The notes: generated from the letters alone by a model not told the origin. Positions 7,526 through 26,396 are shown, counted from the first letter of the stretch. The stretch: 29,017 nt of DNA from Acutalibacteraceae bacterium (GCA_045603625.1 JAZUMM010000108.1:1-29017); one strand, 5' to 3'. Program-made: numbers and translations.

Positions 7526-8668
7526 ATGAATTTTTTGATTAAGTACGGTCTGTTGCCGGTTCTGTTTCTTTTAGGCTTCGCAATGTCCAGCGATGCCTTC
7601 AGATTCGGGTTCGGGGTAGATATACCGATGATTATAGTAATAGCCTGTGTTTTCTATTACTTGTTTATTTACAAAAAAAGAATACGAGGCGGTATGGCAT
7701 ATTCCTGGTGGATTTATCTTATGGTTGTTCCCACAATTGCCATGACAATGCTTGAGGGTGGAAACATACAGTATATGCTTGTTTCTACCTGTGCTTTGTT
7801 ACTTCCGTTTGCTTTGGAGCCCTTTGTACCCGGTAATAATAAGCAAACAATCAGGGGCTTTTATTTAACCTTTATTGTTTCTACAATGGTACTTCTGTTG
7901 TATGCAAACTTCGGATTTTTAAGCAACTGGAACACTAACTGTATTGCGTACCTTATTTATCTTGGTGTTGCAGGTGCAGCCGTAATACTTTCAGAAAATA
8001 GAAAGAATGTTGTTGTCTGGATATGTCTTTTTTACGTGTTTATTCAGCTTATGGTAACTCAGAGCCGAAATGTTATTTCTGCACTTATTATTGTTATTCT
8101 TCTTGTGTTGTTTAAAAAGACGTTTTCAAAAAAAGGACCTTACACAGCAGCTTGCACCTTTGCAATTGCGTATCCTGTTTTGTTTCCTATAATTACAAAG
8201 CAGGTTGCAGGTACAAGCACATATACGTTCCTCAGACAATTTATGGAATCCTTTTTTGATAAAGAAGGTATTTTCAGCGGACGTGACGGCTTGTTCCCTA
8301 TTGCAGAATCAATTATTGAAAGAGATTTATTTAATAATATTCTGGGCTTTGGTAACCCTATGACCGAAATTCTTTCGGTTCACAATGACTATTATATGAT
8401 ACGCTATGCCTACGGCATTATCGGAACTGTTATTATATGTGCATTACTTATTACGTTCTTTAAAAATGCGTATGTTCTTATTAAAAAAGGCGATAACATT
8501 ACCTTTGGTTGTACAGCAGTTATTATAGGCATTTTGTATCAACAGGCCTCTGAAGGCTGGTTCCTTGGAACCCCGTTGATTGTTTTAATGGCTTTTGTTT
8601 ATATGGCAATAGTTATAAAACGATACAGAATGAGTGAAGGGACACATTTAAAAAATGAAAATGCATAA
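7526..8668 (+). CDS. Multi-pass membrane protein of the O-antigen ligase/Wzy_C type (polymerase or oligosaccharyltransferase)
   Basis: About 10 hydrophobic segments; TQSRN, FSGRD and VHNDYY resemble the SR, GR and HNxY motifs of WaaL/Wzy_C proteins. Confidence 0.7.
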   Translation: MNFLIKYGLLPVLFLLGFAMSSDAFRFGFGVDIPMIIVIACVFYYLFIYKKRIRGGMAYSWWIYLMVVPTIAMTMLEGGNIQYMLVSTCALLLPFALEPFVPGNNKQTIRGFYLTFIVSTMVLLLYANFGFLSNWNTNCIAYLIYLGVAGAAVILSENRKNVVVWICLFYVFIQLMVTQSRNVISALIIVILLVLFKKTFSKKGPYTAACTFAIAYPVLFPIITKQVAGTSTYTFLRQFMESFFDKEGIFSGRDGLFPIAESIIERDLFNNILGFGNPMTEILSVHNDYYMIRYAYGIIGTVIICALLITFFKNAYVLIKKGDNITFGCTAVIIGILYQQASEGWFLGTPLIVLMAFVYMAIVIKRYRMSEGTHLKNENA

Positions 8669-9417: not shown

Positions 9418-10443
9418 ATGAAAAAGGTCAGTATAGTTATTCCTGTTTATAATGCAGAAAAATATGTAAAACGCACCTTGGATGCACTTTTAAAACAAAC
9501 GTATGAAAATATTGAATTGGTGATTATTGACGATGGCTCTTCTGATAAAAGCGGAGAAATTGTTTTAAAGGAAGCAGAAAAGGATAACAGAATAAAGTAT
9601 TTTAAAATTAAAAACGGCGGTCCGGGTAACGCCAGAAACGTGGGCGTAAGCAAGGCAACAGGTGAATATATCGGCTTTTGCGATGCAGATGATATTCCTG
9701 ATGAGGATATGTTTGAAAATCTTGTAGCATACCTTGAAAATAATAATGCGGATATGTCGTTGTGCGATATGTTCAGTGAGCGTGATAACAGCAATTACGG
9801 TTTGCCGTGGGAAGATAATACCTTAATAAAGGGTGAGGCAGTTTCTGAAGAAATAATTGCTTCCATGGTAGGTAATAAGTCTGATAACGATAAGTCTGTA
9901 CCATTGTGGGGATGTGTGTGGCGTTGCTTGTTTAAAAAAGAGATTATTGACAGGTTTGACGTGAAATTCCCAACAGAAATTCATTTTGCAGAAGATTTAA
10001 TTTTTGTTCTTAATTATCTTAAAAGGGCAACAAGCGTTGCTATATGTAACAAGTCTCTTTATTTTTACGCTTGTGTTGAAAGCTCTATAATGAACTCCTT
10101 TTTCTCATATAAAAAGGATATGTTCAAAGCAAGAAAAATTCTTGTTGCGTATATTATAAAGGCGATTGAGGATTTACCTTGTTATGAAGAATTAAGAAGT
10201 CGCCTTACTGTTACAGAGCGTTGCTATTATCAGGAATGTGTTGGTAATGCTTGCAGAAAAGCAGAGGGCAGAACACAAAAAGACGTTAAAGCAGAGCTTA
10301 AAGAAATACTTTTTGACGAGGATGTAAAAAAAGCATTTAAAAGCTTTGATGTTCAGGATAAAAAAAGAAAATTATCATATTTAATGATTCAAAAAAGAAT
10401 GACAGGAGCAATTATGCTCTATTACAAAATCCGTTTCAGGTAA
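9418..10443 (+). CDS. GT2 glycosyltransferase
   Basis: VSIVIPVYNAEKY, IDDGSSD, GPGNARNVG, FCDADD, EDLIF; ATG at 9418 after GGAAGG (the track start at 9376 is an over-extension). Confidence 0.92.
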   Translation: MKKVSIVIPVYNAEKYVKRTLDALLKQTYENIELVIIDDGSSDKSGEIVLKEAEKDNRIKYFKIKNGGPGNARNVGVSKATGEYIGFCDADDIPDEDMFENLVAYLENNNADMSLCDMFSERDNSNYGLPWEDNTLIKGEAVSEEIIASMVGNKSDNDKSVPLWGCVWRCLFKKEIIDRFDVKFPTEIHFAEDLIFVLNYLKRATSVAICNKSLYFYACVESSIMNSFFSYKKDMFKARKILVAYIIKAIEDLPCYEELRSRLTVTERCYYQECVGNACRKAEGRTQKDVKAELKEILFDEDVKKAFKSFDVQDKKRKLSYLMIQKRMTGAIMLYYKIRFR

Positions 10444-10459
10444 AAGGTGAGGTGAAGGT

Positions 10460-11506
10460 ATGAGCAACTTAAAAAGAAATACAGGCTTTGACATTATAAG
10501 GATTATTGCAATTTTTATGGTTGTTGCAATTCATTCGCACGTTGCACCTCTCGCAGTTAATAAAGGGTCTGCAATGTGGTATGTTGTTATGTCATTACAG
10601 GTAATTTGTTTAGTTGCGGTACCTTTGTTTTTTATGGTTTCCGGAGCGCTTCTTCTCTCCGACGAAAAAGAAACGGATATAAGCACTCTTTATAAAAAGA
10701 GACTTCCAAAACAAGCCATACCCTTTATTGTGTGGAGTGTTTTTTATGTAATTGCAAGAATTGTTATGGGTAAAATATCCTTTAGCATTTCTGCATTTAC
10801 AAGTCTTTTATACGAGCCTGCATATTACCAGTTCTGGTTTATGTATACTCTTCTTGCGATTTATTTGTTGCTTCCTATATTACAGACACTCATTAAAAAT
10901 TGCGATAAGAAAAAAACAGAGTACATTTTAATTTTGTGGGCAATTTTCAGTGTTCTTTTACCTGTTATTTCAAGGTTTGTTAAGGGCTTTGATATCTCGG
11001 ATCACGTTGACCTTATTTTGTGTGAAGGTTATATAGGTTATTTTATATTTGGTTACTACCTTAATAAATATAAAACTAATATTAAAAATGCTACTGCAGT
11101 TTTAATATGGCTTATTGGTGCTCTTTCCACAGTCGTTTGTGCGGTAATAGAATATAGGGTAACTCATAAGCTTAATCTTACGTATGAGGGCTTTGTGTAT
11201 CAGGCATATATGGTACCGGGAACAGTTGTTTCTGCAACAGGAGCTTTCCTTTTCTTGAGTAATAAAAAATATAATTTCAGTGAAAAAGTAAATGGCATAA
11301 TAACAAAGGTAGCTGTACTTTCTGTGGGCGTTTATTATATTCATATGCTCGTGCTTACAGTAATTGAAAAGATTGGCTTTACAGGTGAAAACAATATTTT
11401 GATTCTCGGTGTTAAAATTATTGCTACTTACCTTGTTTCTTTAATCGGGGCATTTATAATTTCAAAAATCCCCGTAGTACGCAAAATCCTTTTAGGAGTA
11501 AAATAA
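10460..11506 (+). CDS. Acyltransferase-3 (OafA/WecH-like) membrane O-acyltransferase
   Basis: FDIIRIIAIFMVVAIH, AVPLFFMVSG, FWFMYTL, SVGVYYIH; many TM segments. Confidence 0.88.
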   Translation: MSNLKRNTGFDIIRIIAIFMVVAIHSHVAPLAVNKGSAMWYVVMSLQVICLVAVPLFFMVSGALLLSDEKETDISTLYKKRLPKQAIPFIVWSVFYVIARIVMGKISFSISAFTSLLYEPAYYQFWFMYTLLAIYLLLPILQTLIKNCDKKKTEYILILWAIFSVLLPVISRFVKGFDISDHVDLILCEGYIGYFIFGYYLNKYKTNIKNATAVLIWLIGALSTVVCAVIEYRVTHKLNLTYEGFVYQAYMVPGTVVSATGAFLFLSNKKYNFSEKVNGIITKVAVLSVGVYYIHMLVLTVIEKIGFTGENNILILGVKIIATYLVSLIGAFIISKIPVVRKILLGVK

Positions 11507-11507
11507 A

Positions 11508-12305
11508 ATGAAGATTGAGCATATAGTTTCCACAATGAACAGAGAAGATTTTTCTTTTTTGGAAAATCTTGGTTTTGTAACAGATGTGGTTGTTGTTAAC
11601 CAGAATTGCCCGCAAAAAACTGAAAGCTTTTCTTTATCAAACGGCGTAAGTGTTAAAGCAATTTCAACTCCTGAAAAAGGTCTTAGCCGAAGCAGAAATA
11701 AGCTTATAGAAAATGCAACGGGTGACGTGTGTATTATAGGTGACGATGATGTCCAGTACCTTGACGGTTACCTTGATATTATTGAAAATGCATATAAAAA
11801 GTATACTGATGCAGATATAATAGTTTTTTGCTTTACTCACGAGAAAGGTAAGCAAACACGCTTGAGGTATACAGAAGATGTTGCAGTTTCAATGCAAAAC
11901 GTAAGCAAATTTGCTTCTGTTGAAATTACATTTAAGTCAGAGAGTATAAAAAAAGCGGGAATTTCCTTTAATAATAATATCGGTCTCGGCACGCCGTTTC
12001 CCAGTGGCGAAGAAAATGCCTTTTTGGCTGATGCTTTAAGGGCAGGGCTTAAAATATATCACGTTCCGCAGACTATATGTGTTGCAGTGGAAGATATGAA
12101 AATTAACGAGAATTATGATGTTTTAAAGTATATTGAAGATAAGGGCGCATCATTTTATTGTATTTATAAAAAAATGTTCCCCGTATATTCTCTTGCATTT
12201 ATAATTTTAAAGAAAAAAACAATTTTTAAAGATGTTTCAATTTTAAAAGCCTTTCGTTTTATGTTGAAGGGTAAAAGGAAATATATAAAATCCGTAAAGG
12301 AGTAA
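11508..12305 (+). CDS. GT2-like glycosyltransferase
   Basis: IVSTMN, VVVNQ, KGLSRSRN, IGDDDV, GEENAFL. Confidence 0.82.
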   Translation: MKIEHIVSTMNREDFSFLENLGFVTDVVVVNQNCPQKTESFSLSNGVSVKAISTPEKGLSRSRNKLIENATGDVCIIGDDDVQYLDGYLDIIENAYKKYTDADIIVFCFTHEKGKQTRLRYTEDVAVSMQNVSKFASVEITFKSESIKKAGISFNNNIGLGTPFPSGEENAFLADALRAGLKIYHVPQTICVAVEDMKINENYDVLKYIEDKGASFYCIYKKMFPVYSLAFIILKKKTIFKDVSILKAFRFMLKGKRKYIKSVKE

Positions 12306-12308
12306 GCT

Positions 12309-13187
12309 ATGCTTATAAGTGTAATAACGCCTACCTACAACAGAGCATACATACTGAATAAATGTTACAACAGTCTTGTTGCTCAGACCTCAAAGGCCTT
12401 TGAGTGGATTGTGGTGGATGACGGTTCATCAGATAATACTGAGGAATTGGTAGCTTCTTTTATTGAAGAAAACAGAATTAAAATCAAGTATATAAAGCAG
12501 GCAAACGGCGGTAAGCATATTGCTCATAATACTGCAGTTTTAAATTCACAGGGTGACCTTGTTGTGTGCCTTGATTCTGATGACGTTTTAACAGAAAATG
12601 CAATTGAAAAGGCAGTTTCTTTCTGGGAAGAAAATGCACAAGGGCATAATACGGGTATTCTTGCAAAGCGTGGCGATATGGTAGAGCGTAAGCCTATTTG
12701 CTCAGCGCTTCCCGAGGGTGTTAAGGAATGTACTATGTTTGATTTAACAAACAAATATGGGTTTGAGGGTGATACAATTCTCTATTTCAGGCGTGAAATT
12801 TTAGAGAAAAATCTTTTTAAATCCTTTGAGGGTGAAAGGTTTATTCCCGAAACAAATATGTACATTGAAATAGATAAATTTGGCACAATGCTTCTTTTAG
12901 ATGAGGTTTTGTACCTTTGTGAATATCTGCCTGACGGTTTAACTGCAAAATATCACAAGCTTTTAGAAAATAATCCAAACGGTACTGCCGATACATATTA
13001 TAAACAGATGTGTATGGCAAAGGATTTTAAAACAAAAGTGAAATATGGGTTATTAACCAATATATATAAATCACTTTCTCAAAATAAAAAGGAATTACAT
13101 TTTAAAGAAAACAGATTTTTGTTAATGGCTTTAAGTATTCCTTCAGCATTTATAAAAAATAAGTTTTTAAGTAAATTTGAGAGGTAA
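12309..13187 (+). CDS. GT2 glycosyltransferase
   Basis: ISVITPTYNRA, VVDDGSSD, NGGKHIAHN, LDSDD, EYLPDGLT. Confidence 0.92.
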   Translation: MLISVITPTYNRAYILNKCYNSLVAQTSKAFEWIVVDDGSSDNTEELVASFIEENRIKIKYIKQANGGKHIAHNTAVLNSQGDLVVCLDSDDVLTENAIEKAVSFWEENAQGHNTGILAKRGDMVERKPICSALPEGVKECTMFDLTNKYGFEGDTILYFRREILEKNLFKSFEGERFIPETNMYIEIDKFGTMLLLDEVLYLCEYLPDGLTAKYHKLLENNPNGTADTYYKQMCMAKDFKTKVKYGLLTNIYKSLSQNKKELHFKENRFLLMALSIPSAFIKNKFLSKFER

Positions 13188-13190
13188 ATT

Positions 13191-13973
13191 ATGATACCTA
13201 AAATAATTCATTACTGTTGGTTCGGCAGAGGTCAAATGCCTGAATTGGCGGTTAAGTGTATTGAAAGCTGGAAAAAGTTCTGTCCCGATTATGAAATAAT
13301 GGTCTGGAACGAGGATAATTTTGATATTACTTCTAACCGCTATGTTAAAGAGGCGTATGAATCAAGAAAATTTGCTTTTGTTACAGACTATGTAAGGCTT
13401 TATGCAATGTACAATTACGGTGGTATTTATATGGATACTGATGTAATGATACTTAAAAGTCTTGATGAATATTTGCATCATCACGCGTTTTCAGGCTTTG
13501 AGAGTAAAACAAAAATCCCGACCGGTATTATGGCATCAGAAAAAGGCTACGAGGTAATGGCGGACTTATTAAAGTTTTATGATGATGCAGTTTTTATAAA
13601 GGAAGATGGCTCATTTAACATAGTTACAAATACTGAAACTATTACAGCTATGTTTACTGATTGGGGCTTTGTGCCAAACGGGGAATATCAGGAGATTAAG
13701 GGTATGGCATTTTACCCGCAAAATATTTTTTGCCCTGACCACAAAAAGCTTAATGACAGTAAGTATATGAAAGAAACTGCCACAATTCACTATTTTGCAG
13801 GCTCATGGAAAAGTGAAGCAACACTTAAAAGGGAACGTTCTTTGTGGTGGAAGGCTTTTGCAGTTGTGGCAACGTCTGTATCAAAGGTGCTTACAAAGAT
13901 TTTGGGCGATAAATGGACAAATGCAAAAAATAAAGTCCGTGACAATGTTATTGAAAATGAAAAAAACAAATAA
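13191..13973 (+). CDS. GT32 (DXD, Gly_transf_sug) glycosyltransferase
   Basis: MIPKIIHYCWFG, WNEDNFD, AFVTDYVRL, GGIYMDTDV. Confidence 0.92.
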   Translation: MIPKIIHYCWFGRGQMPELAVKCIESWKKFCPDYEIMVWNEDNFDITSNRYVKEAYESRKFAFVTDYVRLYAMYNYGGIYMDTDVMILKSLDEYLHHHAFSGFESKTKIPTGIMASEKGYEVMADLLKFYDDAVFIKEDGSFNIVTNTETITAMFTDWGFVPNGEYQEIKGMAFYPQNIFCPDHKKLNDSKYMKETATIHYFAGSWKSEATLKRERSLWWKAFAVVATSVSKVLTKILGDKWTNAKNKVRDNVIENEKNK

Positions 13974-13989
13974 TCAGAGGAGCGGTTGT

Positions 13990-14991
13990 TTGAAAAGAGA
14001 TATAAACTTTAATTACATCCGTGTTGCTGCAATGGTTGCAATTGTTTTGTGCCATTATTTTCAGGTGTACGGTTTTTTTGGAGTTTCTTCGTGGTTGAAT
14101 ATAGGTGTTCAGGTGTTTTTTGTTCTTAGTGCTAAACTGATAAGCACCAAAAAATTCAACACAAAAGGTGATGTGCTCAGGTTTTTAAAAACGCGAATTC
14201 TCAGAATTTATATACCTGTCTGGATATACCTGATTTGCCTTATACCTGTTTTGTTTGTTGTGGGCAGGGGACCGGATGTTTCTGCAATTATAATGTATTT
14301 TCTGGGGCTTGCGGGCTTTTCTGAAATGGTTGTTTTGGGACTTGGTCATTTCTGGTACATATCTGTGTTGCTTATCTGTTATCTTTTGGTACCGGTATTA
14401 TATAAAATTGCTGATTTTTGCAAAAATACGGGGAAGGCAAAGGCCTTTGTTTTACAGGTAGCTGTTACAGCCGTACCTGTTTTAGTCTTTTTGTTTACAC
14501 AGTATAAGTTTTATGGTGTGAATATAGCATTTTTCTGCGCAGCATACTTTTTATTTTATAAAACAAAAGATAATGAAAATTGGTATAAAGGGAAGGCAAT
14601 TAAGTTATTCCCGTTAGTAGTTGTATTAACAGCCATCAGGCTTTTTACGGATACAAAGGAAATTGCTTCGAACAGTTATTATGACGGTTTATTTGTTACT
14701 TCAGTAAAAGCAATTACGGGAATGTTTTTGTTCTTTGCAATGTACAAATTGCTTTTGGTTTTAAAGGCAAAAGAATTAAAGATTGTTGATTATATATCAG
14801 ATATTTCTTACGAGGTTTACATTGTTCATCAATTTATACTTCTTGCGCTTTTTGAGTTTATTTCATTCTTTAAATCAGGTGTTGCGGGCAAAGTTTCAAT
14901 GTTGATATGCTCCGTAATAATGATTTTCTTTAATGCCGTGATTGTTTTTTACGTGAAAAAGTTTATTGAAAAAAGGGTTATTAAAAAATGA
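13990..14991 (+). CDS. Second acyltransferase-3 membrane O-acyltransferase
   Basis: TTG start at 13990, 7 nt after GAGGAG (13977-13982), gives (M)KRDINFNYIRVAAMVAIVLCH; GVQVFFVLS, HFWYIS, ISYEVYIVHQ. Confidence 0.83.
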   Translation: MKRDINFNYIRVAAMVAIVLCHYFQVYGFFGVSSWLNIGVQVFFVLSAKLISTKKFNTKGDVLRFLKTRILRIYIPVWIYLICLIPVLFVVGRGPDVSAIIMYFLGLAGFSEMVVLGLGHFWYISVLLICYLLVPVLYKIADFCKNTGKAKAFVLQVAVTAVPVLVFLFTQYKFYGVNIAFFCAAYFLFYKTKDNENWYKGKAIKLFPLVVVLTAIRLFTDTKEIASNSYYDGLFVTSVKAITGMFLFFAMYKLLLVLKAKELKIVDYISDISYEVYIVHQFILLALFEFISFFKSGVAGKVSMLICSVIMIFFNAVIVFYVKKFIEKRVIKK

Positions 14992-18432: not shown

Positions 18433-19335
18433 ATGAATCCGTTAATTCAGTTTAAACTTGGCATAACAAGATTTTTAGGGCCGGATAAATGGAACGATGT
18501 TCTTTTAAAAAACGGTTTTAAAAAGTTTAAAAAGGCTCAGCCGGATTTGGCTGCTGAGGTTGAAAAAAATATAAAATACAAAGGTATTCACAAGGGTGAA
18601 AGGTGCTTTATAATCGGTAACGGACCATCTCTTAAGGAGCAGGATTTATCTGTTTTGGGTGACGAGTATGTGCTTACCTGTAATCAGATTATGAGGAATC
18701 CTGTTTTTCCGAGTCTTCGCACTAATTATCACTTTTGGGCAGACCCTTCGTTCTTTGCTTTGAGTCCTGACAGGCCGGAGGATATGGAAATTTTGGAGGT
18801 TATGCTCAGTGTTAATACCGAAGGCAACAGACCTGTTAACTTCTTTGCTCAAGAGGGCTATGATTTTGCAAAAAGGTTTAACCTTCAAGAAAAGCTTGAT
18901 ATTGCATTTTATTCGCACCGTCTGGAATTAACAGATGACTTTAATAACGGAATTCATTTCGACAAATTCACGCCTAATTTACATACGGTTGTTCATTATG
19001 CTGTTGCTATGGCAATATATATGGGTTTTTCTGAAATATATCTTTTAGGTTGCGATTGTACAAATGTTATTACTGCAGCAAACACTCGTCTTATGGCAGG
19101 TGATGGCGCAGAGTATGCATACAAAATTTCCGAAAATGAGAAAAAACGTATGATGAACAGGAACAATGCAATATCTATGGAGGATGAGCTTAAAAGCTTC
19201 TACGAGGTATTTAAGGGCTACAGAGTTTTGCGTGATATTTGCGAAAAATCTGGTATTAAGCTTTACAACTGCACAGCAGGCGGTCTTTTGGATTGCGTTG
19301 AAAGAAAAAAATATGAAGATGTAATAGGAAGGTAA
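18433..19335 (+). CDS. Maf/DUF115-like protein with CstII-type sialyltransferase-fold motifs; candidate ulosonic-acid transferase
   Basis: RCFIIGNGPSL...VLTCN and TVVHYAVAMAIYMGFSEIYLLGCD parallel CstII VIIAGNGPSL...VFRCN and TSGVYMCAVAIALGYKEIYLSGID. Confidence 0.75.
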   Translation: MNPLIQFKLGITRFLGPDKWNDVLLKNGFKKFKKAQPDLAAEVEKNIKYKGIHKGERCFIIGNGPSLKEQDLSVLGDEYVLTCNQIMRNPVFPSLRTNYHFWADPSFFALSPDRPEDMEILEVMLSVNTEGNRPVNFFAQEGYDFAKRFNLQEKLDIAFYSHRLELTDDFNNGIHFDKFTPNLHTVVHYAVAMAIYMGFSEIYLLGCDCTNVITAANTRLMAGDGAEYAYKISENEKKRMMNRNNAISMEDELKSFYEVFKGYRVLRDICEKSGIKLYNCTAGGLLDCVERKKYEDVIGR

Positions 19336-19339
19336 TGTT

Positions 19340-20104
19340 ATGAAAATAATCGGTGTTATTCCTGCAAGATATAAGTCCTCTCGTTTTCCCGGCAAGCCAC
19401 TTGCTGATATCTGTGGCAAGCCAATGATATGGTGGGTATATAATCAGTGCAAAAAGGTTGAAGATTTTGATGCTGTTTACGTTGCAACAGATGATGATAA
19501 AATCTTTGACACGTGTAAAAGTCTTGGCATTGAGGTTATTATGACCTCTGATACACATAAAACAGGTACTGACAGAATCGGAGAGGTTGCACGCAAAATA
19601 CCTGCAGAGCTTATTGTTAACATTCAAGGGGATGAGCCTCTTTTGGAGCCTGCAACAATTAAGGCTGCAATAGAGCCGTTCTATTCAAATCCTGACCTTG
19701 AAATTTCTAATCTTATGACTAAAATCACAGACCCTATTGAGGTTGTGAATTTTACGGTTCCTAAGGTTATTACTAATAAAGACGGTATAGGTGTCTACCT
19801 TACAAGAGCAACTGCTCCGTATCCGAAGGGGAGCCTCGATTACGCATATTACAAGCAGGTGTGCGTATACGGCTTTAAGCCTGAGGCATTACAATTTTAC
19901 TGTGATTACGGTATGAAGTTCGGTAAGGCAAGGGTAGAAGCAGTTGAGGATATTGAAATATTACGTTTTATTGAAAACGGTTATAAGGTTCAGTATATTG
20001 AGGTTGATTCTGATACCGTTGCAGTTGATACACCTAACGACTTGGAAAAGGTCAGAAAAATTGTGGCAGAAAAGATTAATGCAGGGGAAATAAGTAATAA
20101 TTAA
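19340..20104 (+). CDS. kdsB: KdsB-type 3-deoxy-ulosonate cytidylyltransferase
   Basis: IPARYKSSRFPGKPL, VATDD, TGTDR, VNIQGDEP, VDTPNDL are KdsB signatures rather than NeuA signatures. Confidence 0.88.
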   Translation: MKIIGVIPARYKSSRFPGKPLADICGKPMIWWVYNQCKKVEDFDAVYVATDDDKIFDTCKSLGIEVIMTSDTHKTGTDRIGEVARKIPAELIVNIQGDEPLLEPATIKAAIEPFYSNPDLEISNLMTKITDPIEVVNFTVPKVITNKDGIGVYLTRATAPYPKGSLDYAYYKQVCVYGFKPEALQFYCDYGMKFGKARVEAVEDIEILRFIENGYKVQYIEVDSDTVAVDTPNDLEKVRKIVAEKINAGEISNN

Positions 20105-20113
20105 GAGGTGCTT

Positions 20114-21688
20114 ATGAGCAAAATCAATGTACTTGACTGCACGTTACGTGATGGCGGTTATTGTAACAATTGGATGTTCGGCAAACAGAATATCGGCAGA
20201 ATTATTAATGCTCTTGTAGAAGCAGACGTGGAAATAATTGAGTGCGGTTTTTTAACTCAAAAGGTTGAATATGATGTTAACTCCACTCAGTTTACAGATG
20301 TTTCACAGGTTGGTAGCTTTATACCTGCAAACAAACACGGCAAGCTTTTTGTTTGTATGATTAATTTCGGTGAGTTTTCTGTAGAAAATTTACCTTCTGC
20401 AGAGGATACGTCTTTAGATGGTATTCGCGTTGCTTTTCACAAAAAAGATATGGTTGAAGCCATGGCGTTTTGCAAGCAAATAAAAGAAAAGGGCTACAAG
20501 GTTTTTGTTCAGCCTATGGTTTCTTTAGGGTATACAGAGGAAGAATTCAGCGCCTTGATTTCTCTTGCAAATGATATAATGCCACACGCATTTTATATTG
20601 TAGATAGCTTTGGTGTTATGAAGCAAAAAAACCTCTTCAGACTTTTTAAAATTGTTGAAGAGGAATTGGATGAAAATGTAATTGTCGGCTATCATTCTCA
20701 TAATAATATGCAGTTGGCTTATTCAAATGCTCAGTCTCTTGCGGATGCAGATACTGAAAGAAGCTTGATAATTGATTCCAGTATTTTTGGTATGGGACGC
20801 GGTGCAGGTAACCTTAACACAGAGCTTTTTGTAGAATATCTTAATGATAATAACGGTAAAAGCTATGTGCTTCGCCCGTTACTTGTTGTAATTGATGATA
20901 TTTTAAATAATTTTCACGAAACAAATTATTGGGGCTATTCTTTGCCGAACTATTTATCTGCAAAGCACAATGCACACCCCAATTATGCAACGTACCTTGA
21001 TTCTAAAAAGACACTTACCGTTGAAGCGATTGATGAAATCTTCGGTATGATGGCTGAAGATAAAAAATCATCATTTGATAAAAAATATATGGAAGAGCTT
21101 TACCTTAAATATATGATGAAGGGTAATGTTAACGAGAAGAAGCTTTTTGAATTAAAAGAACAGCTTTGTGGTAAAACGGTGTTGATTATTGCTCCGGGTA
21201 GCAGCTCTGTAACGGAAAAGGATAAAATAATTTCCTTTGCCCAACAGGAAAACGTTATAACGATAAGCGTTAATTTTCATTACGATGAATGTGAAACTGA
21301 TTTTATTTTCCTCAGTAATCTTCGCAGATTCAGAAAAATGAAGAAAGGTAAAGAAAAATGCATTGTAACCTCCAATATACCTGCAGAGAATGTGTACCTG
21401 CAAACAGATTACCAAAGTCTTCTGAATGATTATGAGGGTGTGAAGGATAATGCAGGTATGATGCTTGTTAAGTTTCTTATAGAGCTTGGTGTTAAAAATA
21501 TTTGCCTTGCGGGATTAGACGGTTACTCTATTGATGCTACAAAAAACTTTGCGGATGAAGCAATGAATTTCTTTACACAAAAAAGAATTTTTGAAACTAT
21601 GAATGAGGGTATGAATCAGGCTCTTGGTGAATATAGTAAGTTAATTAATATTCAATTTATAACAACACCTAAGTATGTAAAAATATAA
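20114..21688 (+). CDS. DRE-TIM metallo-aldolase (4-hydroxy-2-oxovalerate aldolase-like) fused to a C-terminal CstII/Maf-like domain
   Basis: LDCTLRDGGY, YIVDSFG, YHSHNN, DSSIFGMGRGAGN; C-domain KTVLIIAPGSS...ITISVN...LIELGVKNICLAGLDGY; ATG at 20114 follows AGAGG. Confidence 0.8.
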   Translation: MSKINVLDCTLRDGGYCNNWMFGKQNIGRIINALVEADVEIIECGFLTQKVEYDVNSTQFTDVSQVGSFIPANKHGKLFVCMINFGEFSVENLPSAEDTSLDGIRVAFHKKDMVEAMAFCKQIKEKGYKVFVQPMVSLGYTEEEFSALISLANDIMPHAFYIVDSFGVMKQKNLFRLFKIVEEELDENVIVGYHSHNNMQLAYSNAQSLADADTERSLIIDSSIFGMGRGAGNLNTELFVEYLNDNNGKSYVLRPLLVVIDDILNNFHETNYWGYSLPNYLSAKHNAHPNYATYLDSKKTLTVEAIDEIFGMMAEDKKSSFDKKYMEELYLKYMMKGNVNEKKLFELKEQLCGKTVLIIAPGSSSVTEKDKIISFAQQENVITISVNFHYDECETDFIFLSNLRRFRKMKKGKEKCIVTSNIPAENVYLQTDYQSLLNDYEGVKDNAGMMLVKFLIELGVKNICLAGLDGYSIDATKNFADEAMNFFTQKRIFETMNEGMNQALGEYSKLINIQFITTPKYVKI

Positions 21689-22853: not shown

Positions 22854-24041
22854 TTATTTTGGTCCAAAAACTGCAAGCAAGAAGCCTGCTGCAACTGCAG
22901 AGCCTATAACACCTGCAACGTTTGGTCCCATAGCGTGCATAAGAAGGAAGTTTGTTGGGTTATATTTTCTGCCTTCGTTTTGTGCAACACGTGCCGCCAT
23001 AGGTACTGCAGAAACGCCTGCCGCACCAATAAGCGGATTAATTTTGCCTTTTGTAACAACGTAAAGAAGCTTGCCGAAGAGTACGCCGCCTGCAGTTGAG
23101 AAAGAAAAAGCAATAAGACCGAGAAGGATAATTTTAAGTGTTTGTGATTGTAAGAAGGTTTCGCCGTCTGCTGTTGCACCAACGCACACACCAAGCATAA
23201 TTGTTACTATGTTCATAAGTGCGTTTTGTGCTGTATCAGAAAGTCTGTCGGTAACACCGCATTCACGGAAAAGGTTACCGAGCATTAACATACCAAGAAG
23301 CGGTACAACATCAGGAAGAAGAAGTGCGCAGAAAATAAGAACTGCAACAGGGAAGATTATTTTTTCTGCTTTTGAAACCTTTCTTAATTGCTTCATTTCA
23401 ACCTTACGCTCTTTTTCTGTTGTAAGGAGTTTCATGATTTTTGGTTGAATGAAAGGAATGAGTGCCATGTACGAATATGCCGCCAAGGCAATCGGCGCTA
23501 ACAATTTTGGTGCAAGTTGAGATGTAAGGAAAATAGCGGTAGGACCGTCTGCACCGCCGATGATTGCAATAGATGCAGCCTCATGTCCTTCAAATCCAAG
23601 AAAGACAGCAATTAAAAATGCCATATAAACACCTAATTGTGCGGCAGCACCTAAAAGAAGGCTGACAGGGTTTGAAAGAAGGGGACCAAAGTCTGTCATA
23701 GCACCTACGCCCATAAATATAAGGCAAGGGAATATGTTTGATTTAACACCAACGTACAGAATTCGCAGGAAGCCCGATTCAAACCAATGTTTTGATGCGT
23801 CGGCTGTGGTTCCTATACTACCTAACTCACCACCGGTGGTGTCAAGCATAACGTTGGCACCCGGGAGATTTGCTAAAAGAATACCAAATGCAATGGGAAC
23901 CAGAAGAAGCGGTTCAAATTTGAATCTGATTGCCAACACCAGGAAGAAAATGGCAACACCAATCATTATCAAATTTTCTACCTGAAGAGTAGCAAAACCG
24001 GATTCTTCCCAGAGATTTAATAAAATGTCTGAAAAATTCAT
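22854..24041 (-). CDS. oadB: Na+-translocating decarboxylase beta subunit
   Basis: FEPLLLVPIAFG, GVGAMTDFGPL, IIGGADGPTAIF, LAAYSYMALIP, GVSAVPMAARV, HAMGPNVAGVIGS. Confidence 0.96.
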   Translation of the reverse strand: MNFSDILLNLWEESGFATLQVENLIMIGVAIFFLVLAIRFKFEPLLLVPIAFGILLANLPGANVMLDTTGGELGSIGTTADASKHWFESGFLRILYVGVKSNIFPCLIFMGVGAMTDFGPLLSNPVSLLLGAAAQLGVYMAFLIAVFLGFEGHEAASIAIIGGADGPTAIFLTSQLAPKLLAPIALAAYSYMALIPFIQPKIMKLLTTEKERKVEMKQLRKVSKAEKIIFPVAVLIFCALLLPDVVPLLGMLMLGNLFRECGVTDRLSDTAQNALMNIVTIMLGVCVGATADGETFLQSQTLKIILLGLIAFSFSTAGGVLFGKLLYVVTKGKINPLIGAAGVSAVPMAARVAQNEGRKYNPTNFLLMHAMGPNVAGVIGSAVAAGFLLAVFGPK

Positions 24042-24062
24042 AGTTTGTTTCCTTTGCTTTAA

Positions 24063-24479
24063 TTAGATAACTGCAAGAACATCATCTGTGTTAACTGTTG
24101 TACCCTTTGGAGCATTAATTGATTTAACAGTACCGTCACAAGGAGCAACAATATCGTTTTCCATTTTCATAGCTTCAAGAACACAAATAACGTCGCCTGC
24201 TTTAACTGCATCGCCAACGCTCTTTTTAACTGCAAGGATTGTACCCGGCATCGGAGCTTTAACCTGTGTACCGTCTGCACTGACAGGAGCAGGTGCAGCA
24301 GGTGCAGCAGGAGCTTCTGCAACAGGAGCTGCAGGTGCTTCAGCAACAGGTGCAGCAACGGGAGCAGCTGCAGGTGCAGCAACAACAAAAGGAACTTGTG
24401 AAACGCCTGTAACAACAGCATCACTTTCTGTAACGTCTACTTCATAAATTTTACCGTTTAATGTAACATTATATTTCAT
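24063..24479 (-). CDS. Stand-alone biotin carboxyl carrier subunit (MmdC/GcdC/OadH type)
   Basis: KYNVTLNGKIYEVDV, Ala-Pro linker, APMPGTI, LEAMKMEN biotinylation site. Confidence 0.95.
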   Translation of the reverse strand: MKYNVTLNGKIYEVDVTESDAVVTGVSQVPFVVAAPAAAPVAAPVAEAPAAPVAEAPAAPAAPAPVSADGTQVKAPMPGTILAVKKSVGDAVKAGDVICVLEAMKMENDIVAPCDGTVKSINAPKGTTVNTDDVLAVI

Positions 24480-24482
24480 AAC

Positions 24483-25001
24483 TTAGTCCTCCACTAATTT
24501 AATTGAGTTAAATATAAGATTTTCTAAAGGTATACCTGTTTTATCGGATGTGATAGCCATAATTGCGGCAGCATCCTGTTCTTCAATATTTTCAAGAACA
24601 GGGTCCTGATTAAGTCTTTTGATTGTTTTAAAATCAAGCCTTGAAAGGTCAATACCTGTTCTGTGTGATGTAATAGCCATTAAAACGGCTGCATCTTGCT
24701 CGGAAACTCCGTCAAGAACAACGTACCCCGGAATATGAGGAATTGCATCTTCTTTTGCCTCTTCTGCAGATTCTGCAATAACCTCAACAGGAGCAGAAGC
24801 TGTTTCTGTGGAAGATGTGTTTTCTTCTGCAGGGGCAGAATCTTTGCTTTTTTCTTTTTTATTTCCAACTATTTTTGAAAGTAAAATAACAAAAATAGCA
24901 AGAACGGCAAGAACGGAAAGCACTATTACGAAACCGAAGCCTGATACCTTTAATGCTTCAGGTATTGAGAGTTTTTCTAATTGAAAAGGAAGAAATATCA
25001 T
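24483..25001 (-). CDS. oadG: OadG/MmdD-type membrane anchor subunit with a duplicated C-terminal domain
   Basis: Single N-terminal TM (GFGFVIVLSVLAVLAIFVILLSKIV), acidic linker, two EQDAAxxMAITS repeats; position within the operon. Confidence 0.85.
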   Translation of the reverse strand: MIFLPFQLEKLSIPEALKVSGFGFVIVLSVLAVLAIFVILLSKIVGNKKEKSKDSAPAEENTSSTETASAPVEVIAESAEEAKEDAIPHIPGYVVLDGVSEQDAAVLMAITSHRTGIDLSRLDFKTIKRLNQDPVLENIEEQDAAAIMAITSDKTGIPLENLIFNSIKLVED

Positions 25002-25013
25002 ATTTAATCCTCC

Positions 25014-26396
25014 TTAATCAATGGCCTTGAATTCGTAGGTGTAGATTTTGCCTGCCATTTCATCGCGATAATCAAAGAAGTTTTCTGCCTGAGTCGGGAA
25101 AGCGATGTATGAAAGAACATCCTCATCACTATGAGCCTTTTCACCGATTTCTGCTTTAGCAGTTTCAAAAGCAGGTTCAAGTGTATCTGCGAATCTGCCT
25201 TCAATAGGAGCAACGTCGCCAAGAATCTGGCTTCTTACATCTTCGTTGATAGCGCCCGGAGCTTTACCGTATTCGCCCATAAGGTAAGATTTAACTTCTT
25301 TAGAAACGTTTTTGTATCTTTCGCCTGAAAGAACGTTGTTTGTGGCCTGAACACCAACCATCTGGCTCATTGGAGTAACGAGTGGCGGATAACCAAGGTC
25401 TTCACGTACACGAGGTGTTTCAAGAAGAACCTCATCAAATTTATCCATCTTACCTTGTGCGGTAAGCTGAGCAACAAGGTTAGAAAGCATACCGCCCGGA
25501 ACCTGATAATCAAGAGCTTTTGCATCTGTGCAAAGAACTGTCGGGTTAAGAAGACCGCTTTCAAGAGCCTTTGCTCTGATTGGCTTGAAGAAATCTGCAA
25601 TCTCGCGAAGAGCATTTGAGTTAAGACCTGTATCGTAGTCAAGCTCTGAAAGTGTGTAGTTAAGTGTTTCTGTTGCAGGTTGAGCAGTACCGCCTGACAT
25701 TGTTGAAATTGCAGTGTCTATAACGTCAACGCCTGCTTCAACTGCTTTAAGGCAAGTCATAAAGCCAAGACCTGTTGTGCAGTGAGTGTGAAGAACAATC
25801 GGAAGGTCAACAGCCTCTTTAAGTGAAGAAACAAGCTTGTGTGCTTCTGCAGGGCTGAGTATACCTGCCATATCTTTAATTGCAATTGTCTGGCAACCAA
25901 GACTCTGCATATTTTTAGCAAGTTCAACGTAAGATTCAAGAGTGTGAATAGGGCTGATTGTGTAGCAGATAGCACCTGAAGCAATCGCACCGTTTTTAAC
26001 AGTTTCGTCAACTGCAACTTCAATGTTTTTTACGTCGTTAAGTGCGTCAAATATTCTGATAATATCAATACCGTTTTCAATGCTCTTTTTAACAAACATA
26101 CGAACTACGTCATCAGGGTAGTGACGGTAGCCGAGAAGGTTTTGACCTCTGAGGAGCATCTGGAGCTTTGTGTTAGGGCAAGCCTTTTTGATTTTTCTGA
26201 GTCTTTCCCATGGGTCTTCGTTAAGGTAACGAAGGCAAGAGTCAAATGTTGCACCGCCCCAGCATTCAAGTGAATAGTAGCCGGCTTTGTCTAACTCTTT
26301 AAGGATTGGCTCAAACTCTCTGAATTTCATTCGTGTTGCAATAAGCGATTGGTTAGCGTCTCGCAACACTGTTTCGGTAAATTGAACCTTTTGCAT
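25014..26396 (-). CDS. oadA: Oxaloacetate decarboxylase alpha / pyruvate carboxyltransferase subunit, without a biotin domain
   Basis: ETVLRDANQSL, LECWGGATFD, MLLRGQNLLGY, IKDMAG, HTHCTTG, YQVPGGMLSN, LGYPPLVTPMSQ; RBS AAGGAG. Confidence 0.9.
   Translation of the reverse strand: MQKVQFTETVLRDANQSLIATRMKFREFEPILKELDKAGYYSLECWGGATFDSCLRYLNEDPWERLRKIKKACPNTKLQMLLRGQNLLGYRHYPDDVVRMFVKKSIENGIDIIRIFDALNDVKNIEVAVDETVKNGAIASGAICYTISPIHTLESYVELAKNMQSLGCQTIAIKDMAGILSPAEAHKLVSSLKEAVDLPIVLHTHCTTGLGFMTCLKAVEAGVDVIDTAISTMSGGTAQPATETLNYTLSELDYDTGLNSNALREIADFFKPIRAKALESGLLNPTVLCTDAKALDYQVPGGMLSNLVAQLTAQGKMDKFDEVLLETPRVREDLGYPPLVTPMSQMVGVQATNNVLSGERYKNVSKEVKSYLMGEYGKAPGAINEDVRSQILGDVAPIEGRFADTLEPAFETAKAEIGEKAHSDEDVLSYIAFPTQAENFFDYRDEMAGKIYTYEFKAID

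Follow-up and report, generated by a model that had tools for sequence, protein, structure and literature searches.

We analysed a 29,017-nucleotide contig of an Acutalibacteraceae bacterium (GCA_045603625.1, JAZUMM010000108.1:1-29017; this whole stretch is called the window below) and concentrated on an aldolase gene at 20114-21688 whose product carries an extra C-terminal domain, here called the C-domain. The source genome is metagenome-assembled, 1.95 Mb in size and 78% complete, and the GC content of the window contig is low (31-43%). The gene belongs to a single long surface-polysaccharide locus that spans about 3.8-22.8 kb of the window on the plus strand, the strand of all the locus features described here. 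The locus starts with a DegT aminotransferase, an initiating sugar transferase and a PglD-like acetyltransferase. These are followed by several GT1, GT2, GT-D and DXD glycosyltransferases with two acyltransferases, and then by a DUF1796 protein and a flippase. The locus ends with a Maf/CstII-like protein (18433-19335), a KdsB-like enzyme (19340-20104), the aldolase fusion (20114-21688) and a WecB-type epimerase.

Translation of the fusion gene from the ATG at 20114 gives a protein of 524 residues, and this start is backed by a database protein of 524 residues that is 100% identical. An alternative GTG start at 20108 extends the protein to 526 residues, and the residue numbers in this text follow the 526-residue form. 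The translation reads ...GKTVLIIAPGSS...ITISVN...DNAGMMLVKFLIELGVKNICLAGLDGY..., and the Maf-like neighbour at 18433-19335 contains RCFIIGNGPS, VLTCN and TVVHYAVAMAIYMGFSEIYLLGCD; the motifs that an earlier note, made from the DNA sequence, had quoted for the two proteins are exact in both translations. Our analysis showed that the fusion protein consists of three parts, namely a DmpG-type DRE-TIM barrel, a DmpG-like helical subdomain and the C-domain of 185 residues.

The barrel (residues 4-244, 20123-20845) is a DRE-TIM (HMGL-like) metal-dependent pyruvate-aldolase domain, matched by Pfam PF00682 with an E-value of 1e-18 and by the PDB entries 3dxi, 1nvm, 4lrs and 8ih7. It is closest to the DmpG-type 4-hydroxy-2-oxovalerate aldolases (HOA), yet it stays well under the NCBIfam equivalog cut-offs for HOA aldolases, scoring 93.7 bits against a cut-off of 286 for TIGR03217 and 104.9 bits against 229 for PRK08195. 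In the alignment with DmpG (1nvm), the LRDGGY motif (R14, D15) and the HSH motif (H196, H198) match the metal and enolate residues R17, D18, H200 and H202, and these residues are at least 95% conserved across the fusion family.

The helical subdomain with its linker helix (residues ~245-341, 20846-21130), visible as helices 254-351 in the AlphaFold2 model, is the counterpart of the DmpG 'communication' domain and contains a family-invariant WGYSLPNYL...HPNY motif. Foldseek searches with the full-length model aligned 325-353 columns to the ~340-residue chains of DmpG-type enzymes. The 'communication' subdomain is therefore retained in the fusion, and the C-domain is added behind it instead of standing in place of the DmpG C-terminal domain; the earlier note had said that HOA (DmpG) and isopropylmalate synthase carry different C-terminal domains. 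The best Foldseek match of the full-length model is PDB 3dxi, which can be aligned up to residue 287. This Bacteroides vulgatus structure, whose deposited title is 'N-terminal domain of a putative aldolase (BVU_2661)', shares the LDCTLRDGGY motif of the fusion family.

The N-terminal 340 residues of the fusion share barrel and helical subdomain with DmpG, BphI and HsaF (1nvm, 4jn6, 4lrs) as well as with 3dxi. Unlike the DmpG-type enzymes, the fusion has Tyr18 at the position of DmpG His21 (Tyr in 80 of 81 family members), carries the extra C-terminal domain, lacks a DmpF-type partner and is set in polysaccharide biosynthesis as opposed to aromatic catabolism. In the 85 loci that we compared, the recurring neighbours with an annotation include no acylating aldehyde dehydrogenase (DmpF), and the conserved neighbour is a cytidylyltransferase.

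Fold and conserved residues of the C-terminal domain

The C-domain is an α/β domain of the MptE/Maf/CstII superfamily that occupies residues 342-526, and a profile search of the genome matched it at the same interval, 21131-21685. The domain that the earlier note had placed at 21155-21688 (residues 350-526) is present, and its real start lies slightly upstream, at 21131. An AlphaFold2 model of the C-domain alone (residues 342-526) reached a predicted local distance difference test score (pLDDT) of 93.3 and a predicted TM-score (pTM) of 0.90. We compared this model with 48,161 PDB representatives using VIA-align. The best match is the archaeal 6-hydroxymethyl-7,8-dihydropterin pyrophosphokinase MptE (8sd5), with a Z-score of 12.1 and a root-mean-square deviation of 2.7 over 147 residues. 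It is followed by Maf (5mu5) at Z 10.8, SteA at Z 10.6, three GT29 sialyltransferases at Z 9.8, 9.0 and 8.6, and Campylobacter jejuni CstI at Z 9.0; the MptE and Maf alignments cover 147-155 residues. The top seven matches (Z 8.6-12.1) thus all fall within one superfamily, thiamine pyrophosphokinases come next at Z 6.8-7.9, and unrelated folds appear from Z 5.8 down.

Profile comparison points to the same relationship. Aligned with hhalign, the C-domain family (80 sequences) matches the family of the Maf-like neighbour with a probability of 92.3% and an E-value of 5.6e-7 over 132 columns, and with smaller alignments (25+25 sequences) still with a probability of 79% and an E-value of 1.6e-5. 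Control comparisons of the C-domain family with the GT52-like, KdsB-like and PfkB families of the same loci gave probabilities below 1% and E-values of 0.17-0.85. The homology is visible only with family profiles on both sides, since the C-domain profile against a single neighbour sequence is insignificant (probability 0.6%). The profile of the Maf-like family in turn matches CstII structures at an E-value of 5e-7 and Maf 5mu5 at 2e-5. The motifs shared between the C-domain and the superfamily also keep the same order. The C-domain is CstII/Maf-like at the superfamily level, as the earlier note had proposed, and the structure prediction that the note had named as a check for an unrelated fold yielded the CstII/Maf fold.

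Other searches gave weaker signals. The C-domain stays under every Pfam threshold; its match to PF01973 (MptE-like, formerly DUF115 or MAF_flag10) reaches 13.8-14.7 bits (E 0.027-0.049) against a cut-off of 34.6, covers only profile positions 112-165 around the GxD region, and scored 14 bits in the genome search as well. The best hit of a PDB profile search is the GT42 structure 9c08 (E 0.13), over the stretch RDNAG...GLDGY...NY/F. Foldseek against the PDB gave probabilities of 0.97 for MptE and 0.95 for SteA with a weak E-value of ~0.016, a ranking that agrees with VIA-align; against the Swiss-Prot part of the AlphaFold database it returned only GMP synthases with TM-scores below 0.35, and with the full-length model against the PDB its matches were dominated by the TIM barrel. 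Because Foldseek is uninformative for the C-domain, the fold assignment rests on VIA-align and on profile comparison. In the ESM-Atlas, the shape matches of the C-domain include Maf and MptE-like clusters. One of the MptE-like clusters carries the Pfam domain WaaZ_KDO_III, which links the fold to Kdo transfer. A feature-based ESM-Atlas search returned unnamed fragments and a single phage MptE-like cluster only.

MptE and the PF01973 family provide the best structural match and have a similar minimal-domain size. The C-domain differs from MptE in being fused to an aldolase instead of free-standing, in its sugar-acid instead of pterin setting, in having APGxS where MptE has GxGPS, and in its sub-threshold sequence score. 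Among the Maf nonulosonic-acid glycosyltransferases, the structural match is to the central domain of Maf (5mu5). With the family of the Maf-like protein of the window, the profile alignment gives a partly matching β1 loop, a common Asn after β2 and a common helix-strand-GxD arrangement, and the C-domain and the Maf-like protein occur in the same loci with the same presumed CMP-sugar acid (CMP, cytidine monophosphate). However, the C-domain comprises only the core of this fold, with 185 residues against 300 in the neighbour and more than 600 in Maf. It is also more conserved across loci, and it is constant where the Maf-like gene is replaced by a GT52-like gene in other loci.

We then compared the conserved residues of the C-domain with those of CstII. 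The correspondences were chained through low-identity profile alignments and a conservation table of 81 family members, as opposed to a structural superposition. For CstII, we take His188 to be the general base, Tyr156 and Tyr162 to hold the CMP phosphate, and the Asn residues to line the donor site. About 25 C-domain positions are at least 95% conserved, nearly all of them polar or Gly and located at strand ends and helix N-termini. Because the conserved positions sit where this fold binds its nucleotide ligand, the pattern makes it very likely that the C-domain binds a small conserved ligand.

The loop after β1 reads APGSS (21191-21205; A362, P363, G364 and S366 at least 95% conserved) and is the presumed counterpart of GNGPS in CstII and Maf. 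In A-P-G-x-S against G-x-G-P-S, Gly364 and Ser366 match the third and fifth positions, the Pro lies at a different place, and Ala replaces the first Gly in 78 of 81 members. The invariant N389 at the end of β2 (21272-21274) aligns with CstII N31 and with an Asn that does not vary in the Maf-like family. After β3, the motif LSNLRR (21311-21328; S403, N404, R406 and R407 at least 95% conserved) places N404 in the region of CstII N51 and contains a family-specific Arg pair. The TSN motif after β4 (21368-21376; T421, S422, N423) is matched by SVN in the neighbour and by C78-S79-N80 in CstII. The three residues N389, N404 and N423, matched to CstII Asn31, Asn51 and Asn80 by way of the Maf-like family alignments, are at least 99% conserved.

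Further along, DNAG at the N-terminus of a long helix (21446-21457; invariant D447, N448, G450) aligns with ITSG (130-133) of GT42; here TSG is replaced by NAG, and the position of CstII R129 is Arg or Lys in 52 of 81 members. AGLDGY (21509-21526; A468, G469, D471, G472, Y473), with N480 and F481 behind it, is the presumed counterpart of SGIDFY in CstII (D154, Y156). In the low-scoring alignment with GT42 9c08 (E 0.13), Y473 corresponds to CstII Y156 and is present in 80 of 81 members, and position 481 corresponds to Y162 and is Tyr in 66 of 81 members, with Phe in the window protein.

The C-domain therefore has putative counterparts of N31, N80, D154, Y156 and mostly Y162 of the GT42 enzymes CstI and CstII (2p56, 1ro7, 2x63) and of 9c08. 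Unlike these enzymes, it has a shortened lid and no counterpart of His188. Compared with CstII 156-188, the lid and His188 region, the stretch between Y473 and the final helix falls short by about 14 residues. No His is conserved in the C-domain among the 81 members, the only frequent ones being at positions 345 (70%) and 475 (52%, Ile in the window protein). Judged from the aligned residues, with Asn at three strand ends, GxDGY and a second Tyr, the conservation pattern looks more like a metal-independent GT42 CMP-sugar site than like a pyrophosphokinase. The pyrophosphokinases of this fold presumably use Asp at the strand ends to hold Mg-ATP. The earlier note had offered a degenerate CMP-sugar sensor as one reading of the C-domain. 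A sensor is compatible with these data and is the reading we prefer, but 'degenerate' overstates the case given how many positions are conserved, including the N31, N80, D154 and Y156 counterparts.

Distribution and gene neighbourhood of the fusion family

A protein search identified at least 7179 significant homologues among 8000 scored candidates. The best 120 homologues are all full-length proteins of 524-557 residues, at least 60% identical to the query, and the database gives them no other names than 'aldolase catalytic domain-containing protein' or '4-hydroxy 2-oxovalerate aldolase'. An exhaustive profile search gave 1063 cluster representatives; those whose length departs from ~525 residues turned out to be fragments, frameshifted copies or assembly chimeras. 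The fusion is present in at least 564 species-level genomes of several phyla (Bacillota, Bacteroidota, Spirochaetota, Fibrobacterota, Synergistota and Pseudomonadota), with carriers among Clostridia, Erysipelotrichaceae, Sporolactobacillus, Selenomonadales, Tannerellaceae, Treponema, Hallerella, Synergistaceae, Succinivibrio and a Riflebacteria metagenome-assembled genome (MAG). Cultured carriers include Eubacterium callanderi, Ruminococcus flavefaciens Y1, Sporolactobacillus spathodeae and Lactimicrobium massiliense. The occurrence is patchy: in the genome samples, 17 of 399 Clostridia and 3 of 401 Pseudomonadota carry the fusion.

The C-domain is always fused. Every strong match in the 399 Clostridia and 401 Pseudomonadota genomes lies inside a frame of ~510-570 residues, the one exception being a frame of 766 residues with a HAD domain behind it. 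Candidate stand-alone C-domain proteins (matches of ~215 and ~340 residues) were rejected as frameshifted tails, truncated genes with a partial HMGL domain, or apparent chimeras with GT2 or PheRS fragments. On a short metagenome contig (L089, 169-1730), the fusion copy is split into open reading frames (ORFs) of 287 and 222 residues. The frame changes after the equivalent of residue 246, and the 222-residue ORF starts at the equivalent of Met313, reflecting either a pseudogene or a sequencing error. Split copies of this kind explain the apparent stand-alone C-domain proteins in databases. Literature searches found no published description of the fusion, its conservation or its role. The fold and each partner family are already known, and the only public trace of the fusion is 3dxi, which holds the aldolase part alone.

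To define the gene context, ORFs were called and clustered in 85 loci. The KdsB-like gene lies directly upstream of the fusion in 79 of 83 loci, often with an overlap of 4-8 nt. In the window it occupies the same place, and its product is a KdsB-like CMP-ulosonate synthetase (19340-20104; NCBIfam PRK13368, 291 bits against a cut-off of 255). The mean column identity of this partner is 76%. Between MAGs assigned to different families the identity of the KdsB-like protein is 82-97%, a conservation that exceeds that of the aldolase and suggests strong constraint or a recent horizontal spread of the module. A 768-residue ESM-Atlas cluster from Campylobacterota fuses CTP_transf_3, HMGL-like and C-domain in one chain. 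Together with the upstream gene, this cluster bears out the tie to CMP-sugar metabolism that the earlier note had drawn.

A PfkB kinase gene follows directly downstream of the fusion in 33 of 83 loci (for instance L004/L005 at 9592-10617 and L011 at 11592-12620). The kinase scores 546 bits on the kinase half of NCBIfam NF041633, a KHG/KDPG aldolase/sugar kinase fusion, and 229 bits as a KDG/KDGal kinase. This neighbour suggests that many hosts phosphorylate or salvage the 2-keto-3-deoxy acid formed by the aldol reaction. HAD phosphatases follow the fusion gene in a few loci. In a Clostridia genome (G062, contig 406; L092, 1177-3456), a KdsC-type HAD domain (Hydrolase_3) is fused behind HMGL-like aldolase and C-domain in a single 760-residue ORF, preceded by a cytidylyltransferase gene, an arrangement that implies a phosphorylated intermediate for at least some versions of the pathway.

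Two further fusion variants came to light. In a metagenomic protein of 772 residues (L090, 4515-6833), an HpcH/HpaI-family aldolase is fused ahead of the HMGL-like barrel and the C-domain, so that the chain holds two different pyruvate-aldolase folds; its locus also contains cytidylyltransferase, MptE-like, Wzy and flippase genes. A 381-residue NeuB-family cluster in the ESM-Atlas may have a similarly shaped domain (TM-score 0.71). The C-domain profile search found no protein combining NeuB with a C-domain in the 401 Pseudomonadota genomes.

We counted transferase genes in the 46 loci that are flanked by 7 kb or more on either side. Maf-like genes are found in 22 of these loci and GT52/polyST-like genes in 17, none has both, and seven have neither. 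One of these seven has a weak polyST-like gene, so that a dedicated transferase is present in 39-40 of the 46. Several of the seven encode Pfam-less proteins of 350-590 residues just upstream, possibly a third transferase type. Across loci, the mean identity to the window copy is 53% for the C-domain, 61% for the barrel, 65% for the helical subdomain and 39% for the Maf-like transferase. The probable ulosonyl-transferase of the window locus itself is the stand-alone Maf/CstII-like protein at 18433-19335 (PF01973, 37.7 bits; CST-I, E 1e-4), a distant paralogue of the C-domain. We hold with high confidence, as one joint claim, that the fusion is a large conserved three-part family which forms a two-gene core with the KdsB-like gene in surface-polysaccharide loci, where a separate and swappable sialyltransferase-like enzyme presumably attaches the sugar.

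Candidate functions of the C-terminal domain

From family chemistry and gene context, the aldolase would condense pyruvate with an aldose or an aldose phosphate to an ulosonic acid that is then activated by the KdsB-like enzyme. No NeuB match was found in the source genome, which is 78% complete, and the sole DAHP_synth_1 match in it is a 346-residue frame on another contig; the aldolase is thus the only candidate condensing enzyme near the KdsB-like gene. The product of pyruvate and an aldose is by definition a 4-hydroxy-2-keto-3-deoxy acid, the class of substrate used by KDG-type kinases, which may explain the frequent PfkB neighbour.

The arrangement resembles the KdsD/KdsA/KdsC/KdsB and NeuC/NeuB/NeuA pathways in having a KdsB-type activator and a sialyltransferase-like gene in a glycan locus, with a HAD phosphatase sometimes fused or adjacent. 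It differs in its condensing enzyme, a pyruvate-dependent DRE-TIM aldolase instead of KdsA or NeuB, both of which depend on phosphoenolpyruvate (PEP). New CMP-ulosonic acids have been described in Magnetospirillum in the SugarBase preprint, without an aldolase-fusion enzyme.

Within such a pathway, the C-domain is neither the cytidylyltransferase nor a KDG-type kinase nor a HAD phosphatase, because each of these coexists with it as a separate gene or as an extra fused domain. We tentatively prefer, with somewhat less than even confidence, that the C-domain is a CMP- or CMP-ulosonate-binding control or hand-over domain that does not transfer sugar to a glycan. It would bind the nucleotide end of the pathway, either CMP or a CMP-activated 3-deoxy-2-ulosonic acid, in a predicted CstII-like donor pocket made of the APGxS loop, the Asn residues ending β2, β3 and β4, DNAG, GxDGY and the second Tyr. 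It would thereby give the aldolase, which would catalyse the first committed step, a means of control or hand-over within the same chain.

Isopropylmalate synthase and citramalate synthase carry an end-product-binding C-terminal domain on the first committed enzyme, and end-product control in the fusion would parallel the C-terminal domains of these DRE-TIM enzymes. The likeness to the 'LeuA_dimer' enzymes LeuA and CimA is one of architectural logic, in that the enzyme of the first committed step combines a barrel, a helical linker and a ligand-binding domain at its C-terminus; the fold of this last domain, however, is completely different, and regulation in the fusion is hypothesised only. 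More doubtful, though possible, is the specific proposal that the C-domain is a non-transferring, sialyltransferase-derived sensor of the CMP-activated end product, or hands over to the KdsB-like enzyme, and in this way controls a pyruvate-dependent, PEP-independent route to CMP-ulosonic acids in hundreds of gut and rumen species.

Several points weigh against a control or hand-over role. It is a prediction that leans on the residue roles described for CstII and on correspondences from low-identity alignments. ATP is as plausible a ligand as CMP, because the closest structural neighbour, MptE, is a pyrophosphokinase. The invariant residues D447, D471, R406 and R407, together with E370 and D398 (93% conserved), could equally form a catalytic site. 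The missing His188 counterpart is no proof of catalytic inactivity, since the Maf-like family, whose members are presumed genuine transferases, has no invariant His either. The full-length AlphaFold2 model, with a pTM of 0.65, gives only a tentative placement of the C-domain relative to the barrel. Finally, the window locus has no PfkB kinase beside the fusion gene, and pathway details may thus differ between loci.

Alternatively, and in our view nearly as probable as a control or hand-over role, the C-domain may be a second pathway enzyme for a step that no other gene covers, which would carry out ATP-dependent phosphoryl or pyrophosphoryl transfer or would hydrolyse a nucleotide-linked precursor and release the aldose in the manner of PseG or NeuC. 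MptE as the top structural match, the thiamine pyrophosphokinases behind the first seven, and the invariant charged and polar residues, among them many Asn, would all suit such an enzyme. Most loci have no obvious supplier of the aldehyde acceptor (a KdsD or NeuC equivalent) beside the two-gene core, some loci contain a kinase or HAD-phosphatase gene and thus evidently involve phosphorylated intermediates, and permanent covalent attachment to the aldolase fits consecutive steps. On the other hand, the strand ends carry Asn as in CstII and not the Asp presumed for the pyrophosphokinases of the fold, and the GxDGY...Y motif resembles the CMP-phosphate clamp of GT42. Dedicated kinase and phosphatase genes coexist with the fusion, which leaves neither of those activities to the C-domain, and we know of no precedent for nucleotide-sugar hydrolysis in the MptE/Maf/CstII fold.

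The close coupling of the fusion to its partner raises another, improbable alternative in which the C-domain is mainly structural. As an oligomerisation or docking module, it would hold the KdsB-like enzyme by the aldolase and capture the reversible aldol product, by analogy with the channelling between DmpG and DmpF. The adjacent and often overlapping genes in 79 of 83 loci, the existence of CTP_transf_3 + HMGL-like + C-domain triple fusions and the very strong conservation of the KdsB-like partner are all in keeping with docking. A pure scaffold, however, would have no need of conserved polar residues of the pocket type whose arrangement mirrors that of a nucleotide-sugar site.

We consider it very unlikely that the C-domain is an active ulosonyl-transferase, whether it were to act as an additional glycan transferase, to add a primer or to glycosylate itself; a second CMP-ulosonate transferase had been among the proposals of the earlier note. 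Homology to the Maf/CstII-type transferases speaks for it, as do the 6-7 of 46 well-flanked loci without a recognisable separate sialyltransferase-like gene within 7-10 kb and the lack of an invariant His in the Maf-like family as well. A role in glycan transfer is nonetheless disfavoured because the loci bring their own dedicated transferase, from one of two unrelated and mutually exclusive families (Maf-like or GT52-like). The transferases, moreover, diverge with the glycan, whereas the C-domain stays near the barrel in its identity, conserved like a small-molecule enzyme. With 185 residues, it is a stripped-down core that lacks the acceptor-binding elaborations and most of the lid found in CstII, Maf and GT29, as well as a His188 equivalent. 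Fusion of a transferase to the first enzyme, ahead of the activation step, also has no clear pathway logic. That the resemblance is generic to any Rossmann-like three-layer sandwich, with no specific MptE/Maf/CstII relation, would fit the PF01973 score far under threshold and the weak Foldseek E-value and TM-scores, but is hardly credible given seven leading VIA-align matches from one superfamily with thiamine pyrophosphokinases next, the profile-profile match with clean negative controls, and motifs in the same order.

To our knowledge, every characterised pathway for Kdo or for sialic, legionaminic or pseudaminic acid begins with a PEP-dependent synthase of the KdsA or NeuB type. Here, a metal-dependent pyruvate aldolase joined to a sialyltransferase/MptE-like domain would take the place of the synthase beside a KdsB-type enzyme. 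Bacteria of the gut and rumen carry this module in abundance, and the label '4-hydroxy-2-oxovalerate aldolase' is wrong for its aldolase. If the C-domain is a sensor, it would be the first case in which a DRE-TIM aldolase has taken up a glycosyltransferase fold for allosteric control, and the pathway would be a third way to CMP-ulosonic acids besides those with KdsA-type and NeuB-type synthases. Working out its function would correct the annotation of thousands of genes and identify an acidic surface sugar of commensals that is relevant to immune recognition and to phage receptors, and it might show the reuse of a glycosyltransferase fold for regulation or for a new reaction. With a small, apparently soluble protein and carriers available in culture, the question can be tested directly.

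Other features of the window

Immediately on the 3' side of the polysaccharide locus lies a convergent operon of the Na+-translocating oxaloacetate-decarboxylase type (22854-26396, minus strand), which encodes carboxyltransferase alpha (25014-26396), gamma (24483-25001), a biotin carrier (24063-24479) and beta (22854-24041). The carboxyltransferase alpha has an HMGL-like barrel of its own; the genome holds three HMGL-like genes, of which this is the second, and it bears no relation to the aldolase fusion.

Within the locus, an ORF of 380 residues (7526-8668) has no Pfam match at E-values of 0.001-0.01. The DXD glycosyltransferase ORF at 13191-13973 and the following acyltransferase ORF at 13795-14991 overlap by ~180 nt. 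The true start of the acyltransferase probably lies downstream of the TTG at 13795, because the Acyl_transf_3 match starts at residue 71.

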